Positions 1 through 5,522 of a stretch of DNA of 5,522 nucleotides are shown here, piece after piece. Source of the stretch: a virus (taxonomy: Duplodnaviria; Heunggongvirae; Uroviricota; Caudoviricetes); IMG/VR virus record IMGVR_UViG_2667527792_000001, positions 1-5,522 of that record. The stretch is one strand, 5' to 3'. A program made the translations under genes and the position numbers. Below the pieces are notes generated by a model, which worked only from the letters and a program-made list of their open reading frames with translations, searched no databases and was not told the origin of the DNA. Within the stretch, counting starts at the first letter, position 1. Every line of letters begins with the position of its first letter.

Positions 1-657
1 ACCGACTATTTGCAACAGTGCCGTGTACATCGAAATACGGCTTATCAGGCGTTAAAAGATGCTTGCGATGACTTGTTTGCAAGACAATTCAGTTATCAGA
101 GTCTTAGTGAAAAAGGTAACACTATTAATCACAAATCAAGATGGGTGAGCGAGGTGGTGAAAAAACGCGGTGACCTCCTCGACCTCGAACCAGACAGCTT
201 CGATCAAAACATTGCCATTAACACCCGCGCGCCGTTCTTCCTTGCTCAGGCATTCAGTAAGCGCTTACTGGCACAGCCGAAACCGGAAGCGGAGCTGCCG
301 CACCGCTCGATTATTTTCGTCAGTTCCATCAACGCCATCATGCTGGCGATGAATCGCGGCGAATACACCATTGCCAAAACCGCCGTTTCTGCCGCTGCTC
401 GTCTGTTTGCTGCTCGCCTTTGTAATGAACAAATTGGCGTTTATGAAGTGCGCCCTGGTCTCATCAAAACCGATATGACTATTCCGGCAACGGCTTATTA
501 CGACGAACTGATTGCCAAAGGTCTGGTGCCGTGGGGACGTTGGGGTTATCCGGCTGATATTGCTTCCACTGTCCGCGCGATGGCGGAAGGTAAACTGATT
601 TACACCTGTGGTCAGGCGGTCGCCATCGACGGCGGCTTAAGTATGCCGCGCTTCTGA
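1..657 (+). CDS. Short-chain dehydrogenase/reductase (SDR) family oxidoreductase, 5'-partial (frame is open to the window edge; stop TGA at 655-657)
   Basis: Frame 1 is open from base 1. The translation has SDR hallmarks: a Ser in FVSSINAIM about 14 residues before the catalytic Y-x3-K (YTIAK), then the PG motif region (VRPGLIKTDMT) and a C-terminal IDGG. The NAD(P)-binding N-terminus is outside the window. Specific enzyme not identifiable by eye. Confidence 0.7.
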   Translation, partial: TDYLQQCRVHRNTAYQALKDACDDLFARQFSYQSLSEKGNTINHKSRWVSEVVKKRGDLLDLEPDSFDQNIAINTRAPFFLAQAFSKRLLAQPKPEAELPHRSIIFVSSINAIMLAMNRGEYTIAKTAVSAAARLFAARLCNEQIGVYEVRPGLIKTDMTIPATAYYDELIAKGLVPWGRWGYPADIASTVRAMAEGKLIYTCGQAVAIDGGLSMPRF

Positions 658-703
658 GGCTGAATCATGAGAGATCTGTTACAACGCCCGGATTTATTCA
701 GTA

Positions 704-988
704 TCAATACCGCAACACTGGGCTATAAAACGCCGCTACNAACAGCGCCTTGTTATAGTTGTCCAGATCGCGGATCCGGTTATCCGGAGGAAACAACACG
801 ATCTCCACTGAAGCTGGTGCCGACGTTGGTTTCGGCAGACGGCGTAACTGCTCAATGATGGCGGCACACGCCGCGCCCTGGAATTTACGCCCCGCCGCGC
901 TTATCAGGCTCTTACCTGCAAAAGCCCCTTTGTTGGGGTGTCGCCAGTACGTGTTCACGCTGGGGGGAAACGGCAGGATCAGCTTCAT
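704..988 (-). CDS. rusA: RusA-family Holliday junction resolvase, C-terminally truncated (94 codons; probably an inactive remnant)
   Basis: N-terminus LILPFPPSVNTYWRH and the motif RIRDLDNYNKA parallel E. coli RusA (ITLPWPPSNNRYYRH; RRRDLDNLQKA). Similarity stops about 12 residues after the DLDN motif, and the ORF ends at residue 94 with no equivalent of the third catalytic Asp. Both other frames hit stops immediately. ATG at 988-986 overlaps the upstream stop (ATGA). An ambiguous base (n at 740) falls in codon 83. Confidence 0.75.
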   Translation of the reverse strand: MKLILPFPPSVNTYWRHPNKGAFAGKSLISAAGRKFQGAACAAIIEQLRRLPKPTSAPASVEIVLFPPDNRIRDLDNYNKALXVAAFYSPVLRY

Positions 989-1311
989 ACTTTCAGCCCC
1001 CTCTCATGTAACCAGTGGGCTGCACGCAGCCTGCCGTTTTCCTCACCGGCAAGCAGTGCGCGGATAATCCCGACCGCCTCGCTGTCGTCGTCCTTCACCG
1101 CGGTATGAAGCGTTATCCCCCGGGCCACGCCACGCTTTATCGTGATGACGCCTTTTTTCTCCAGTGCGCGAAGATGCTCTACCGCTGCATTCACTGAACG
1201 GTATCCCAGCATGGTTGCCACCTCCTGATTAGTTGGCGGGAAGCCACGTTCTTGCTGGTAAGAAATCAGCATATCCAGCACCTGCTGCTGGCATTGAGTT
1301 AACGTCGTCAT
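985..1311 (-). CDS. LexA N-terminal DNA-binding domain homologue (winged HTH), lacking the S24 peptidase domain
   Basis: MTTLTQCQQQVLDMLISYQQERGFPPTNQEVATMLGYRSVNAAVEHLRALEKKGVITIKRGVARGITL aligns closely by eye with the E. coli LexA N-terminal domain ([68 protein letters not shown]). The protein is only 108 aa and has no Ala-Gly/Ser/Lys peptidase module. ATGA overlaps at both ends (1308-1311 and 985-988). Confidence 0.7.
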   Translation of the reverse strand: MTTLTQCQQQVLDMLISYQQERGFPPTNQEVATMLGYRSVNAAVEHLRALEKKGVITIKRGVARGITLHTAVKDDDSEAVGIIRALLAGEENGRLRAAHWLHERGLKV

Positions 1312-1961
1312 GCCGCCATCTCCCTGACCAGTTTTTCCGCCTGCTGGCGAACCTGCACCAGAAACGCCTCACCACATGCCTCAAGTTCATCGCGCCCGAT
1401 GTAGCTGATTGCCGGTCCCTTCCAGGTCTTGTCGAAAACAGCAATAGCACCAGCGAAGAAAGCACCTGTCGGCACCTGCTTCTCGTCCTTCGGGATAAAC
1501 CAGGCAGGCAGTTCAAAACCAATACGCCCGCGAATAAAAGCAATATGGTCCGCATCTTCCGGCCACCACACTTCACTGGTGGCAGCTTTGATCAGGAAAA
1601 CATAGCGCCCGCCTTTATCACGCATGGCACTGGCATGTTTCATGATGTAACGCATGCCGGTGATGTATTGCCCCTCATGCTGACTGGCGCGGCTGTATGG
1701 GGGATTACCAAAGGCAGCACCTTTAAGCTCCGCAAGGCGTTCTGACCAGTCATGCGCCAGCGCGTTGTCTTCCGCCGTGTAATACGCGGCACATTTGGCG
1801 TTATCACCGTCAGTGAACAGATCCAGAACAAACGGGCCAAACAGGGTGTTAATTCCCCAGAAAATGTTGTCCGGCGTGCGCCACTGATCGCCCACTTCCT
1901 TCAGTTCATGGGCTGGTTTGTTCCGCAGTTCCACCAGTGCCTGACAATATTTATTACTCAT
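1308..1961 (-). CDS. Phage Dam-family N6-adenine DNA methyltransferase
   Basis: Contains the amino-methyltransferase catalytic motif NPPY (AAFGNPPYS); length and organisation fit the phage Dam family. Start chosen at ATG 1961-1959 (MSNKYCQ...), preceded by GGGGG 4 nt upstream; an in-frame GTG at 1994 is an alternative start. Stop overlaps the next gene's ATG (ATGA at 1308-1311). Confidence 0.8.
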   Translation of the reverse strand: MSNKYCQALVELRNKPAHELKEVGDQWRTPDNIFWGINTLFGPFVLDLFTDGDNAKCAAYYTAEDNALAHDWSERLAELKGAAFGNPPYSRASQHEGQYITGMRYIMKHASAMRDKGGRYVFLIKAATSEVWWPEDADHIAFIRGRIGFELPAWFIPKDEKQVPTGAFFAGAIAVFDKTWKGPAISYIGRDELEACGEAFLVQVRQQAEKLVREMAA

Positions 1962-2152
1962 TAAGCCCCCACGTAATTCCCTGACAGATACCACTCTTCA
2001 CCCGATGCAGCGCGCTTGCTGCTTTTCTGTAAGCACTGCTCACGACGCGCCAGAAAATTGTTTCGTTCTGGCTGGGAGTGGCTTTCACGGAATACCGCCA
2101 TCCACACGGTTGCAGCACGACGGTATAAGCCCCTGGACTCCAGTTCTTCAGC

Positions 2153-2449
2153 CTAGCGGGTCAGGCACAAAATCACCCGTGGATCGTTAGTGCCGACATA
2201 GAAATTGCGCACAGGTCTGGTTTCTCGAACTGGTTGTGGTTCCGGTTCCTGCGCTCTCTCAGTCAGGCGCGGGAAATGTCTGCGTGTATCTCCTTCACAA
2301 CGGTGAGCCACACGCCCACTCTGACGTAACTTGCTTGCTGACTGCAGAACGCGCTGCCGTGAGTAACCTGCAAAAGCATCCGCAATGTCTCCGGAAGTAC
2401 ATCCCGGATGGGCTTCAATGAATTTCTGAACTTCATTCAAAAGACTCAT
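2153..2449 (-). CDS. Hypothetical small protein (possible winged-helix fold); may be the N-terminal part of an amber-interrupted gene
   Basis: ORF starting at ATG 2449-2447 (MSLLNEVQKFIEAHPGCTSGDIADAFAGYSRQRVLQSASKLRQSGRV...), immediately after the replication gene stop (TGA 2454-2452). Ends at TAG 2155-2153, with the same frame staying open for 46 more codons downstream. No family recognised. Confidence 0.4.
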   Translation of the reverse strand: MSLLNEVQKFIEAHPGCTSGDIADAFAGYSRQRVLQSASKLRQSGRVAHRCEGDTRRHFPRLTERAQEPEPQPVRETRPVRNFYVGTNDPRVILCLTR

Positions 2450-2451
2450 GA

Positions 2452-3393
2452 TCACCCCCTGAATCCTGCCGGGATCTGGCTGTAGTCCACGTTGTCGTAA
2501 CTGGATTTGAAGTACGGGTCTTCGCGTTTTTCGGTGTACGTGCTGACGGACGGTGATAAGCGCAGGGAAAGCTCATCCCATTTTTCCCGCAACTTCGACG
2601 GGCTGAGCACGTTACGGCACCAGAACGGATCGCGGCTGACGCGGCTGTACATCTCGCAGATTTGTTTGTGAGTACGACCATCCTGCACACACATCAGGCG
2701 AATTTCGTTTGCCCAGGCTGTCCAGTTCGGTTCTTTGGGACGAACCACCTCGCCGTCACATTCGGCGGCTTGCTCGTACAGGGCGATGATTTTTTTCCAG
2801 AGCCACTGTGCGCAGGTCAAATCATCCTGCGTTCCCCACTGGCGCTTTTTAGGGCTGAATACAACCGCATCAGGATGGCGAGTTAAAAAATCCTGTTCAT
2901 CCGTCTGCGTGTCCGGTTGCGAAGCGTCCGGACGAGAAGGTTTTTTATCTGACGGATCATGTTTTGATTTTACTGACGGATCCCCGCCAGATTCTGACGG
3001 GTGAAAACCCGCTTTTTTGCCAGATTTCGACGCATCAAATTTTGACGGGTCAGATTTTGATGCGTCAGATTTTGACGGGTCAGAATCTGGCAGTTGAGAA
3101 AATGCCGCTGCCTGAAGCTTCGCAACGTTAAGCTGATAAACATTCGACGCATTGCGGTTACCCTGGCGACGCGCCTTACGCGTTAACCAGCCTTCTGCTT
3201 CCAGCCGTGCGATAGCCGTCCTGACGGTACTCATCCCCGCGCCAATCTGACGGGCAATAGTTTCAATTGATGGCCAGCACACACCTTCGTCATTACTGAA
3301 ATCAGCCAGGCGGGCCATAATTGCCACGCTGGATAATTTCATGCCTGATGCAGCGCAACCATCCCATACATAGCCGGTTAATTTAGTGCTCAT
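2452..3393 (-). CDS. Phage replication initiation protein (lambda O-like): N-terminal HTH DNA-binding domain, repetitive Ser/Asp/Pro/Lys linker encoded by the iterons, C-terminal domain
   Basis: The N-terminal ~90 aa (SSVAIMARLADFSNDEGVCWPSIETIARQIGAGMSTVRTAIARLEAEGWL) resemble the HTH domain of phage replication initiators. The central region DSDPSKSDASKSDPSKFDASKS is encoded by tandem 15-bp DNA repeats, as in lambda O where ori lies within the gene. ATG 3393-3391 is preceded by AGAGG. Confidence 0.75.
   Translation of the reverse strand: MSTKLTGYVWDGCAASGMKLSSVAIMARLADFSNDEGVCWPSIETIARQIGAGMSTVRTAIARLEAEGWLTRKARRQGNRNASNVYQLNVAKLQAAAFSQLPDSDPSKSDASKSDPSKFDASKSGKKAGFHPSESGGDPSVKSKHDPSDKKPSRPDASQPDTQTDEQDFLTRHPDAVVFSPKKRQWGTQDDLTCAQWLWKKIIALYEQAAECDGEVVRPKEPNWTAWANEIRLMCVQDGRTHKQICEMYSRVSRDPFWCRNVLSPSKLREKWDELSLRLSPSVSTYTEKREDPYFKSSYDNVDYSQIPAGFRG
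2946..3095. repeat. Iteron array (candidate origin of replication) inside the replication initiator gene
   Basis: Five tandem 15-bp units at 3021-3095 (consensus about CAGATTTTGACGGGT; 3036-3050 and 3066-3080 differ at one position). A further 14/15 copy lies at 2988-3002, and two more TGACGG cores sit near 2950 and 2974. T-runs flank the array. Confidence 0.55.
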
Positions 3394-3402
3394 GACCGAC
3401 CT

Positions 3403-3741
3403 CTATTTCCCTGAATTTACGACGAAACTGTTCGAGCGGGCTGAAGCACTCATGCTCATAGCCTTCGCGGAGGTAGATAACTCGTTGTGTTTCCGGCTCC
3501 CAACGAATGACTCTGACGGGCACTCCGTAGTGATCTTTGAACCAGCGGTTAACTTGTCGCAAAGGACTGTCTCCTTCTGCCGGTTGAAATCACCCACAGC
3601 CCACTCAGCAAAGCTGTGGGTTACAATTTCCCTGTCACCTGGTACATTAACTGCATAGCAATACTCCACCTTCGCTTTTCCACCCGGTACAGGAAGCGCA
3701 ATCAGTTGCGAGCGACGGTAGTGTGTTGTTAAACTGTTCAT
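3403..3741 (-). CDS. Hypothetical protein (112 aa)
   Basis: Co-oriented ORF in the operon; its ATG at 3741-3739 overlaps the upstream stop (ATGA at 3738-3741) and its stop TAG (3405-3403) sits 9 nt before the replication gene start. No recognisable family; the C-terminal third is low-complexity, so a frameshift or a shorter true product is possible. Confidence 0.4.
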
Positions 3742-4346
3742 GCGTTAGTTTCTCCACAGTCACGACACGCCACGGCGCCCGGAGCTGCACACTCGCGGGC
3801 GTCATTACTTTCTGAAATGCAAAAGATTTTGTAGACCAGTGCTGCATGCTCCTGCAGCTTCGAAATTGAGAGATACAGCTCGTCGTTAATTGCTGTCTTC
3901 TCATGCGGTTCCACCACACCGTCTTCGATTGCCGAACGAATCTGTCTGGAATAACTGCCAATCTGTTCAATGACTTCCAGCAGGCGCTGGTTAATATCGG
4001 CGTTGTCCACATCCTCGACGTCAGGAAGAGACACAAAGACGCCATTTGCAGACTGCGCCACAGCGTCAGCAATGAAGTGAGTTCCACCAGCACGTTGCAA
4101 AATCATTGCCCATCCCAGCGGGAAAATCTGATCGCCATCGGCACGAAGGCGGTTAAATAATGCGTTTTCTGTTACATCCAGCCAGTCAGCTGCTTCAGCG
4201 TAACCACCCGGCAACGCTGCGATAGTTTTTCTGACAGCTTTCACGTACCACTCAGGCTGTTTTTCTACTTTCCAGTGATGCTTACCCACGGTTAGCCTCA
4301 TCGTTCTGTGGTTTCTGTTAATCGATTTATCCATTAGATTTTTCAT
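3738..4346 (-). CDS. CII-like / YdaT-family phage regulatory protein (putative)
   Basis: Sits immediately downstream of the Cro-like gene, the position held by CII/YdaT-type regulators in lambdoid prophages; about 200 aa. Start is uncertain: ATG candidates at 4346, 4334 and 4301, all with weak RBS, and the ORF track's GTG at 4403 overlaps cro. Family assignment rests on position and general character, not a confident motif match. Confidence 0.5.
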
Positions 4347-4527
4347 AAAGCTCAGGTTTAAATGGCAACCGTCCGCAAGTTCTATATGCAGCTTCTGCTG
4401 CACGTCCTTTTGGAATTAACTGGCCCGGACGGTTTCGCCACTGATAAACGGCTTCAGTTGTTATGCCGAAAAAAGCAGCAACTTTCTCAATACTGCCGAA
4501 GTAGCTTTCGATATCGTCAGTTGTCAT
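4327..4527 (-). CDS. cro: Cro/YdaS-like HTH DNA-binding protein (lytic-side regulator of the immunity switch)
   Basis: 66-aa protein divergent from the CI-like repressor. HTH segment IEKVAAFFGITTEAVYQWRNR is typical of Cro/YdaS-type proteins. ATG 4527-4525 is preceded by GGAGGG. Confidence 0.7.
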   Translation of the reverse strand: MTTDDIESYFGSIEKVAAFFGITTEAVYQWRNRPGQLIPKGRAAEAAYRTCGRLPFKPELYEKSNG

Positions 4528-4624
4528 ACGCCCTCCAAGCTAAGTTTTATTAGATGCTAATTACAAATCTATCTTTGGTCAATAAAAACTAAGATTACTT
4601 AGCAATTCAAGAAATGGTGCTCCT
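4528..4624. promoter_or_regulatory. cI-cro intergenic immunity switch with two 14-bp operator-like palindromes and divergent promoter candidates
   Basis: Sites CTAAGTTTTATTAG (4540-4553) and CTAAGATTACTTAG (4589-4602). A leftward promoter candidate for cro has -35 TTGACC (complement of 4577-4582), a 17-bp spacer and -10 TAGCAT (complement of 4554-4559), placing the first site over the start region and the second just upstream of -35. The rightward cI promoter is less clear (for example TTACAA 4561-4566 with TAAAAA 4583-4588). Confidence 0.55.
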
Positions 4625-5251
4625 ATGGAAACGGTTGGTCAGCGTATAAAAGCTCTGAGAAGAGTTACCGGAACGTCCCAGAAAGAATTGGGTAAATTTT
4701 GTGGAGTAAGCGACGTTGCTGTGGGGTACTGGGAGAAAGACATCAATACCCCTGGTGGGGAGGCACTTTCGAAATTAGCGAAGTTCTTCAATACGTCAAT
4801 AGATTACATTCTTTATGGTGCTGAGTTTGAAGGCAAACTCGTCACAAACATGCGCAGAGTTCCTGTAATATCGTGGGTTCAGGCTGGGCAGTTTACTGAG
4901 TGCAGGGCAGCAGAAGTGTTTAGTGAAGTGGACAAGTGGGTAGATACATCATTAAAGATTGGTGATAACTCATTTGCATTAGAGGTTAAAGGTGACTCCA
5001 TGACTAACCCTAATGGCCTCCCAACAATACCAGAAGGCGCAACAGTGATTGTAGATCCAGATGCAGAACCTCGTCATGGAAAAATAGTCATCGCTCGACT
5101 TGATGGAACAAACGAAGCTACAGTAAAAAAATTAGTCATCGATGGCCCTCAAAAGTTTTTAGTGCCATTAAATCCTCGGTATCCCAACATCCCTATCAAT
5201 GGTAATTGCCTTATCATTGGTGTAGTCAAAGGAGTTCAATACGAACTCTAA
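4625..5251 (+). CDS. cI: CI-like prophage repressor (XRE-type HTH plus LexA-like S24 peptidase domain; predicted RecA-stimulated autocleavage)
   Basis: N-terminal HTH (TSQKELGKFCGVSDVAVGYWE). C-terminal S24 module with an Ala-Gly cleavage site (VQAG, A87-G88), catalytic Ser in GDSM (S125) and Lys in TVKKL (K168/169). Divergent to cro across a 97-bp intergenic region. Confidence 0.85.
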   Translation: METVGQRIKALRRVTGTSQKELGKFCGVSDVAVGYWEKDINTPGGEALSKLAKFFNTSIDYILYGAEFEGKLVTNMRRVPVISWVQAGQFTECRAAEVFSEVDKWVDTSLKIGDNSFALEVKGDSMTNPNGLPTIPEGATVIVDPDAEPRHGKIVIARLDGTNEATVKKLVIDGPQKFLVPLNPRYPNIPINGNCLIIGVVKGVQYEL

Positions 5252-5273
5252 GACCTCTCTTCTCTAACTAAGG

Positions 5274-5306
5274 CACCGAACTAAGAAAAGTTTGGTGTTT
5301 TCTCTT
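5274..5306 (+). terminator. Candidate intrinsic terminator downstream of cI
   Basis: Stem CACCGAAC (5274-5281) pairs with GTTTGGTG (5290-5297): 8 bp including one G-U, 8-nt loop, followed by TTTCTCTT. The stem is modest, so confidence is low. Confidence 0.3.
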
Positions 5307-5316
5307 GCCATAATAA

Positions 5317-5330
5317 CTAAGTTAAGTTAG
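5317..5330. promoter_or_regulatory. Third copy of the operator-like palindrome, downstream of cI (OL-like candidate)
   Basis: CTAAGTTAAGTTAG matches the CTAAG-N4-nTTAG pattern of the two intergenic sites. It lies in an AT-rich stretch with -35/-10-like hexamers (TTGCCA 5305-5310; TAGATT 5328-5333). Confidence 0.4.
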
Positions 5331-5522
5331 ATTTTATATCAAAGATAACGAACAGGCAGGACGCCCACGAAGTAGCCGCCGGTGGCGTATGAATGACCGG
5401 ATTGNNTCNNTNNNTGGAAATCAGCCAATGATTCGCGTTCGCCTACCAGAATGACTTTCAGCTTCAATGGCATCGAAGGCACAGAGACGGGGAGAGGGCG
5501 CGACTCATCAAACGCAACCCAG

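Follow-up and report, generated by a model that had tools for sequence, protein, structure and literature searches.

The window analysed here, 5,522 nucleotides (positions 1 to 5,522) of the virus record IMGVR_UViG_2667527792_000001 (Caudoviricetes), contains a lambdoid immunity region in which a cI-like repressor gene and a cro-like gene diverge from a common intergenic region. A 14-base-pair (bp) palindrome occurs three times around cI, and these copies are very likely the operators of the CI repressor in an immunity region of the mEp460/vB_EcoM-689R6 type. The system appears to be a diverged, heteroimmune relative of the P22 C2/phage 21 cI family that would serve an ordinary lysis-lysogeny switch. 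Sites are named as in other lambdoid phages, with right and left operators (OR and OL), early promoters (PR and PL) and a promoter for repressor maintenance (PRM), and their coordinates are collected in Table 1.

The three 14-mers reported in a first-pass annotation of the window are all present: CTAAGTTTTATTAG (OR1) and CTAAGATTACTTAG (OR3) lie between cro and cI, 49 bp apart from centre to centre as described there, and CTAAGTTAAGTTAG (OL1) lies downstream of cI. The pattern CTAAGNNNNNTTAG has three sites in the window, equal to four strand matches, as CTAAGATTACTTAG is a perfect palindrome and matches both strands. Dinucleotide-preserving shuffles of the window gave a mean expectation of 0.04 strand matches, and the observed four were attained in none of 200 such shuffles. 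When up to two mismatches to CTAAGNNNNCTTAG were allowed, one extra site was found in the window, CTAAGAAAAGTTTG (the OL2 candidate below), and a three-mismatch site, CAAATCTATCTTTG (the OR2 candidate), lies between OR1 and OR3. A repeat search of positions 4500-5400 revealed no rival repeat family able to act as an operator.

The first-pass annotation proposed testing whether copies of the motif concentrate at immunity regions, and a search of three whole phage genomes and a chromosomal stretch showed that they do. CTAAG-N4-CTTAG with at most one mismatch was restricted to three immunity-region positions in LLS (42.9 kb), mEp460_4F5 (42.9 kb) and vB_EcoM-689R6 (43.5 kb). The two-mismatch class in the same genomes included the equivalent of the OL2 candidate each time, so that this site is kept in all three whole phages. 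In 41 kb of the E. coli ECONIH1 chromosome, comprising a prophage and 16 kb of host DNA, exact CTAAGNNNNNTTAG was found at the immunity-region places only. As the motif is exclusive to the immunity region in the phage genomes and the chromosomal stretch scanned, a similar density elsewhere does not arise as an objection to operator function.

A position weight matrix was built from 32 distinct strong 18-mers, taken only from relatives in other genera and from LLS, and was symmetrised. Applied to the window, this relatives-only matrix placed OL1 (24.8 bits), OR3 (21.0 bits), OR1 (20.9 bits) and the OL2 candidate (13.5 bits) at the top, with the OR2 candidate fifth (3.2 bits). Its consensus reads A1, N2, C3 T4 A5 A6 G7, an A/T-rich centre, C12 T13 T14 A15 G16 and T18, which suggests a full site of about 18 bp with the form A-N-CTAAG-(A/T)4-CTTAG-N-T.

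Protein comparisons bore out the proposed divergent pair of CI-like and Cro-like genes. CI matches the Pfam families HTH_3 (E 1.1e-10) and Peptidase_S24 (E 9.2e-28), and Cro matches P22_Cro (E 4.4e-11). Among PDB sequences, the closest solved structure for the N-terminal 65 residues of CI is the DNA-binding domain of P22 C2 (E 1.7e-9 to 2.1e-9), and the C-terminal part matches the C-terminal domain of lambda cI (E 7.5e-28). The Ala-Gly cleavage site (VQAGQF), the serine of GDSM and the lysine of KK are all aligned with those of lambda cI. P22 C2 and phage 21 cI are two-domain repressors of the same kind, 47-49% identical to CI (47% over 205 amino acids to the C2 of a P22-like phage and 48.8% to phage 21 cI), and their Cro is of the same Pfam family; Cro is 30% identical to that of a P22-like phage. 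A Shine-Dalgarno sequence, GGAGGG, lies just 5' of the cro ATG.

The operators of P22 C2 and phage 21 are reportedly treated in the work of Poteete et al. from 1980. The geometry of the P22 operator in the repressor-operator co-crystal 2R1J, xTAAG-N4-CTTAx within 18 bp, is shared by the present sites, as are the conserved A1 and T18 and the A/T-rich uncontacted centre of P22 (PMC4267663, PMC5175364). The P22 consensus is ATTTAAGATATCTTAAAT (PMC5175364), in which the repressor contacts positions 2-7 and 12-17 and leaves the central four uncontacted (PMC4267663). Compared with this consensus, the present sites have C instead of T at position 3 and G instead of A at position 16, and position 2 is not conserved. 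CTAAG accounts for 62 of the 64 symmetrised half-sites, whereas the half-site of P22 and phage 21 is TTAAG. Harris, Williams and Koudelka found that wild-type P22 repressor binds a site changed from T3 to C non-specifically and at least 16-fold more weakly (PMC4267663), and for this reason the present system and P22/21 should be heteroimmune. The TTAAG half-site not being the one found here, we regard the system as a relative with its own specificity and not as a case of P22/21 immunity.

The recognition helix of CI differs in parallel, reading GVSDVAVGYWEK where P22 has GVSNVAISQWER, with Asp and Gly-Tyr in place of Asn and Ser-Gln. CI retains the valine which in P22 repressor lies against the methyl groups of the TTAA thymines (PMC5175364), consistent with the TAA core kept in the half-site. 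Across the relatives S[DG]V[AST]VGYWEK accompanies CTAAG. SHVA[IV]SQWEK of Photorhabdus and Xenorhabdus accompanies TTAAG, as does SNVAISQWER in P22-type phage, and NRVTVTGWEK of Morganella accompanies GTAAG or GTAGG. Half-site specificity thus seems to covary with the recognition helix, Gly-Tyr going with CTAAG and Ser-Gln with TTAAG.

The sites had initially been described as 14-bp operators of the 434/P22 type. The P22 part of this description holds for both the geometry and the CI domain, whereas the 434 part does not: the half-site and the spacing differ, and 434 repressor is absent from the PDB sequence matches of CI. The likeness to 434 cI, which reads 14-bp ACAA-N6-TTGT sites, consists of dyad operators with an uncontacted centre that is read indirectly. 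Judged from the sequences, P22 and not 434 is the proper reference for this system.

Relatives were collected by a scan of one genome per species, which gave about 20 prophages outside E. coli. CI homologues with 63-90% identity were found in Enterobacter, Kosakonia, Kluyvera, Serratia, Rahnella, Yersinia, Rouxiella, Providencia and Proteus. Nearly all of these relatives have two sites, approximately 85-88 and 36-38 bp upstream of the cI ATG, at a constant distance of exactly 49 bp from each other. The half-sites are kept while the central 4 bp vary (ATTA, ATTG and ATAA; TTTT, TTTG, TTAA, TTAT and GTTC), and the OR1 copy is more diverged or shifted in a few cases (Serratia L015, Proteus L024 and L025, Rouxiella L018). 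LLS, which is 77.5% identical over the region, retains all three sites. Among 22 distinct sequences, five blocks were conserved: OR1, ATAtTA (PR -10, complementary strand), C.AA...TTtG (middle site), gTCAA (PR -35) and AAAACTAAGATtACTTAG (OR3). OR3 is the most conserved intergenic block, and conservation drops directly after it. A second perfect CTAAG-N4-CTTAG pair, again 49 bp apart, was observed 440-570 bp upstream of cI in L022 and L031 (Serratia and gammaproteobacterial metagenome-assembled genomes), suggesting a duplicated or rearranged operator region there.

Within OR, a promoter scan gave a PR candidate directed towards cro. OR1 abuts its -10 on the downstream side and covers the expected start, and the hexamers are kept in the relatives (-10 TAATAT or TAGTAT, -35 TTGACC). 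An alternative PR, TTGAAT-17-TTTTAT (4610..4582) with OR3 in its spacer, was rejected because its -35 is not conserved in LLS and other relatives, in contrast to the conserved TTGACC-17-TA(G/A)(C/T)AT. Phage 21, whose operators were taken from the annotations in its sequence record, has the same arrangement of PR relative to OR1 and OR2. In the same orientation its OR reads ATTAAAGAACACTTAAAT - CCAAAGGAATCTTAAGT - ATTTAAGATGTCTTAACT, with centres separated by 22.5 and 25.5 bp and thus spanning 48 bp, against 49 bp here, and the middle sequence is degenerate in each (a candidate in the present case).

This middle sequence, the OR2 candidate, falls within the spacer of PR and reaches the -35. 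It agrees with the half-sites at 7 of 10 bases and is centred 24 bp from the centre of OR1 and 25 bp from that of OR3, and its position is equivalent to that of phage 21 OR2, CCAAAGGAATCTTAAGT. When the 35-bp gap between OR1 and OR3 was scored with the matrix in the window and 16 relatives, the top match lay at an offset of exactly +24 in 16 of the 17 sequences, with scores of 12.8 bits in Rahnella (CTAATCTTTATTAG) and approximately 8.6 bits in LLS, Enterobacter and Kosakonia. The constant register, the better copies in relatives and the likeness to phage 21 together favour a weak OR2 that would depend on cooperativity. Of the two options left by the first-pass annotation, only two OR sites or a degenerate middle one, the latter is therefore preferred.

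OR3 overlaps any plausible PRM core. Two candidates for PRM can be read from the sequence: the first would put the centre of OR2 near -41.5, as in lambda, and the second has its -10 hexamer inside OR3, a hexamer also found in OR3 of P22 and phage 21. Neither candidate passed the consensus promoter scan. A conserved Shine-Dalgarno-like element, GGTG at 4616-4619, precedes the cI ATG, which argues for a transcript start upstream of this element and a short leader. cI begins 22 bp after OR3 here, whereas it begins immediately after OR3 in P22 and phage 21.

Downstream of cI, the third site was said to follow a terminator candidate in a promoter-like stretch, and this is what was found: an intrinsic terminator hairpin is followed by OL1 inside PL. 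The stem of the hairpin carries paired changes in LLS, from CACCGAAC/GTTTGGTG to CATCAAAC/GTTTGATG, and folds equally well. The PL candidate, also from the promoter scan, is directed away from cI, with OL1 filling its spacer and extending 3 bases into the -10. The promoter is conserved as TTGACC...TAGATT in the relatives. In relatives with the same downstream module, OL1 is invariant or nearly so, and the conserved elements after cI are TTGACC, then six bases, then CTAAGTTAAGTTAG and ATTT. PL and OL1 are homologous to those of phage 21, whose OL1 is also embedded in PL and has almost the same flanks; the corresponding LLS sequence, cacTTGACCaataaaCTAAGTTAAGTTAGAT, differs little from the phage 21 PL, cacTTGACCaataaATTAAGAAGTCTTAAAT. 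The OR/OL layout of lambdoid immunity regions suggested for the window is thereby supported, with OL1 placed between the -35 and -10 of PL. The rightward operon expected beyond the window is present in complete relatives and comprises small open reading frames (ORFs), yfdP, yfdQ, yfdR, xis and int.

The fourth site of the window, CTAAGAAAAGTTTG, forms the loop and 3' arm of the cI terminator and keeps 8 of the 10 half-site bases. It lies 36 bp upstream of OL1, compared with 35 bp between OL2 and OL1 in phage 21, and is a reasonable OL2 candidate. It ranks as a clear fourth not only in the window but also in a 43-kb phage and the 41-kb chromosomal stretch, where the best background score was 7.0 bits. 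In Yersinia proxima, Providencia and Proteus a full palindrome immediately precedes the -35, at 34 bp upstream of OL1, and a repeat finder independently paired 5279-5304 with 5315-5340. No match to an OL3 was found approximately 29 bp upstream of the OL2 candidate, and the third OL site located 22 bp downstream of OL1 in Providencia and Proteus is absent from the window. P22 and phage 21 have OL1 to OL3, whereas the present system has one strong OL site and a weak candidate fused with the cI terminator.

Several side observations concern the OL region. Three well-formed OL sites, including those 34 bp upstream and 22 bp downstream of OL1, are seen in Providencia L023 and Proteus L024 and L025, while the E. 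coli type has the one strong site and the terminator-embedded candidate. An extra half-site, AACTAAG at 5266-5272, was rejected since it is not conserved (AACCAAA in mEp460_4F5). The first approximately 35 nucleotides transcribed from PL (5352-5385, acaggcaggacgcccacgaagtagcc) are common to the K-12 prophage e14 and to Kluyvera, Kosakonia and Yersinia proxima prophages that have different or diverged immunity regions, and this stretch could either mark the edge of a module or represent a conserved leader. The PL leader after OL1 folds no better than shuffled sequences (z -0.2).

We propose the following mechanism for the switch. CI dimers would read the operators, with the helix-turn-helix (HTH) contacting the outer bases and the central 4 bp acting as an uncontacted A/T-rich spacer. 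CI on OR1 would block leftward transcription from PR of cro, the cII-like gene and the replication genes, and the weak OR2 would probably be filled cooperatively through the lambda-like C-terminal domain, aiding this block. Since OR3 lies over PRM, CI may regulate its own gene negatively there, and Cro, which very probably also reads the palindromes, may shut off cI. CI on OL1 would block the rightward operon from PL (yfdP, yfdQ and yfdR to xis and int in the relatives), possibly assisted by the weaker OL2. RecA-stimulated self-cleavage at the Ala-Gly site, as part of the SOS response, would lift repression and induce the prophage.

Table 1. Genes, operator sites and promoter elements of the immunity region, with positions in the window
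Feature	Position	Strand	Description
O-like replication gene	2452-3393	-	HTH_36; with iteron-like repeats
CII-like gene	left of cro		Phage_CP76; ymfL in the annotation of relatives; leftward early operon
cro-like gene	4327-4527	-	66 amino acids; heads the leftward early operon (cro, cII-like ymfL, O-like gene)
OR1	4540-4553		CTAAGTTTTATTAG; 18-bp form 4538-4555
PR candidate	4582..4554	-	-35 TTGACC 4582..4577; 17-bp spacer; -10 TAGCAT 4559..4554
OR2 candidate	4564-4577		CAAATCTATCTTTG; degenerate
PRM candidate 1	4576-4605	+	TGGTCA-18-TAGCAA (4576-4581, 4600-4605)
OR3	4589-4602		CTAAGATTACTTAG; 18-bp form 4587-4604; 22 bp upstream of cI ATG
PRM candidate 2	4590-4595 (-10)	+	-10 TAAGAT
cI repressor gene	4625-5251	+	208 amino acids; P22-C2-like HTH and lambda-cI-like S24 domain
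cI intrinsic terminator	5270-5301	+	13-bp hairpin, then U-run; -15.1 kcal/mol, z -4.1
OL2 candidate	5281-5294		CTAAGAAAAGTTTG
PL candidate	5305-5333	+	-35 TTGCCA 5305-5310; 17-bp spacer; -10 TAGATT 5328-5333
OL1	5317-5330		CTAAGTTAAGTTAG; 18-bp form 5315-5332

The number of OR sites is the part of this model for which an alternative deserves most attention. The two strong palindromes could be the only OR sites, with the middle sequence being simply the PR spacer and -35, and the 49 bp possibly bridged by looping between dimers. We consider this arrangement rather unlikely, but it has several points in its favour. The OR2 candidate has three mismatches in ten positions, and matches of its level number 7-12 per ~43 kb, so that 3.2 bits alone is not significant; the score at +24 is negative in Serratia L015, Providencia L023 and the metagenome-assembled genome L031; and the conservation of the middle site could come from the overlapping PR -35 and spacer. 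On the other hand, the +24 register and the higher scores in Rahnella, LLS, Enterobacter and Kosakonia speak for a true site, as does the similarly degenerate OR2 annotated in the same place in phage 21. A distance of 49 bp also corresponds to approximately 4.7 helical turns, a poor phase for direct bridging between dimers.

It is far less probable that the palindromes are bound by a protein other than CI, be it Cro only, the cII-like YmfL or a host factor, and that CI reads something else. Cro is indeed encoded beside the sites, and its family binds the same operators as the repressor. The half-site covaries with the recognition helix of CI across relatives, however, and no alternative repeated motif was found near the promoters. 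The geometry is that of the operator co-crystallised with P22 C2, whose domain is the closest solved homologue of CI (PMC5175364), and CII-type activators bind direct repeats flanking the -35, as annotated in phage 21, and not 14-bp palindromes over the -10 and +1. Least credible of all is a recurrence without operator function, whether by chance or composition in AT-rich promoter DNA or as what remains of a promoter duplication. In its favour, the DNA between the genes is AT-rich, and OR3 and OL1 share extended flanks, ATAAAAACTAAG and ATAATAACTAAG, which suggest common descent of the two promoter regions. Such a recurrence is difficult to reconcile with the shuffling result, with dyad symmetry, half-sites kept while centres vary and a spacing fixed over nine other genera, and with the lack of other occurrences in ~170 kb of related phage and host DNA.

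Some points weigh against the assignment of the palindromes as CI operators, or against parts of it. The relatives share ancestry, and in-register conservation is therefore not fully independent evidence. The case for OR2 rests on its position and on the better copies in relatives, as its score recurs in the background, and the conservation of OL2 is partly explained by its overlap with the terminator stem. No published paper was found that contains any of the four 14-mer strings. In addition, the strongest OR site is OR3, beside cI, and not OR1, which the lambda paradigm does not predict. This last point could mean that the switch is wired unlike those of lambda and P22, with OR3 filled as readily as OR1, tight negative autoregulation and a low, easily induced level of CI, and with the changes from T3 to C and from Ser-Gln to Gly-Tyr as a natural retargeting of the valine-cleft half-site. 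OR3 is the sole perfect and the most conserved site, OR2 is very weak and OL2 is merged with the cI terminator, but we regard such a different wiring as improbable.

The system resembles lambda in its divergent cI and cro with a probably tripartite OR, in an OL over PL beyond cI and in the homologous C-terminal domain of CI. It differs in its P22-type N-terminal domain and Cro, in its 18-bp sites with a 4-bp centre (17 bp in lambda) and in an OR-OL distance of ~0.78 kb instead of 2.4 kb, and the N and rex genes are not seen next to cI in its relatives. No N-like antiterminator gene is annotated beside PL in vB_EcoM-689R6 and LLS. The e14 prophage of K-12 (ymfK-ymfT-ymfL) is similar in gene order, in the ymfL label given to the cII-like gene in relatives and in acaggcaggacgcccacgaagtagcc just downstream of PL, and the 689R6-type phage also integrates beside icd. 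Immunity of the e14 type was nevertheless rejected: the N-terminal domain of YmfK is unrelated and only the S24 domain aligns, YmfT is unrelated to Cro, and the e14 sites are of the GTACA type.

The prophage segment of the window extends from 741 to 5402. Its immunity region is 99.8% identical to that of vB_EcoM-689R6, 99.5% to vB_EcoS-569R4, 95.5% to mEp460_4F5 and 77.5% to LLS, and was found in 523 of 5426 complete E. coli genomes, in a chromosomal location in every case. The gene order is lambdoid, with cro and the CII-like and O-like replication genes leftward, then cI, followed by the PL operon in relatives. The window ends (1-740 and 5403-5522) match unrelated E. coli core sequence present in every genome, and the left end includes a short-chain-dehydrogenase-like ORF at 10-657. 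An N at 740 and Ns at 5405-5414 mark the joins to the prophage part. As the ends are unrelated and joined at N characters, the window is an assembly composite, and the joins are most likely of assembly or scaffolding origin rather than a real insertion boundary.

Within the O-like gene, positions 3021-3084 hold 4-5 tandem copies of a 15-bp unit, CAGATTTTGACGCGT, alternatively described by a 30-bp period, which look like origin iterons as in O of lambda and phage 21. A 108-amino-acid ORF at 985-1311 on the minus strand, labelled 'LexA-like protein' or 'LexA family transcriptional regulator' in relatives, is too short for a peptidase domain and lies between adenine methyltransferase and RusA genes in a nin-like region. 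Rfam gave no RNA family in the window at E values up to 1. Outside the window, ~0.9 kb beyond OL1, a sub-threshold match to the small RNA STnc100 (42.5 bits against a gathering threshold of 47, E 3.6e-6) was observed at 7923-8146 of vB_EcoM-689R6 (L001), within a long non-coding region that precedes yfdP, is conserved and also occurs in LLS.

We found no published description of this immunity specificity, and the literature mentioning mEp460 consists, judging by titles and abstracts, mostly of prophage-hit lists. The general understanding of lambdoid switches is unchanged by the present system, which will not surprise a specialist. The immunity type is nevertheless carried by about one in ten complete E. 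coli genomes, and relatives of it occur in at least nine further genera of enterobacteria. Knowledge of its operators would allow homo- and heteroimmunity to be predicted, PR, PL and PRM to be annotated, and reporters or induction-proof mutants to be designed. With one half-site base that appears to covary with Gly-Tyr versus Ser-Gln in the recognition helix, the system may represent a naturally occurring change of specificity in a repressor of the P22 kind, whose structure is well studied in P22 itself.

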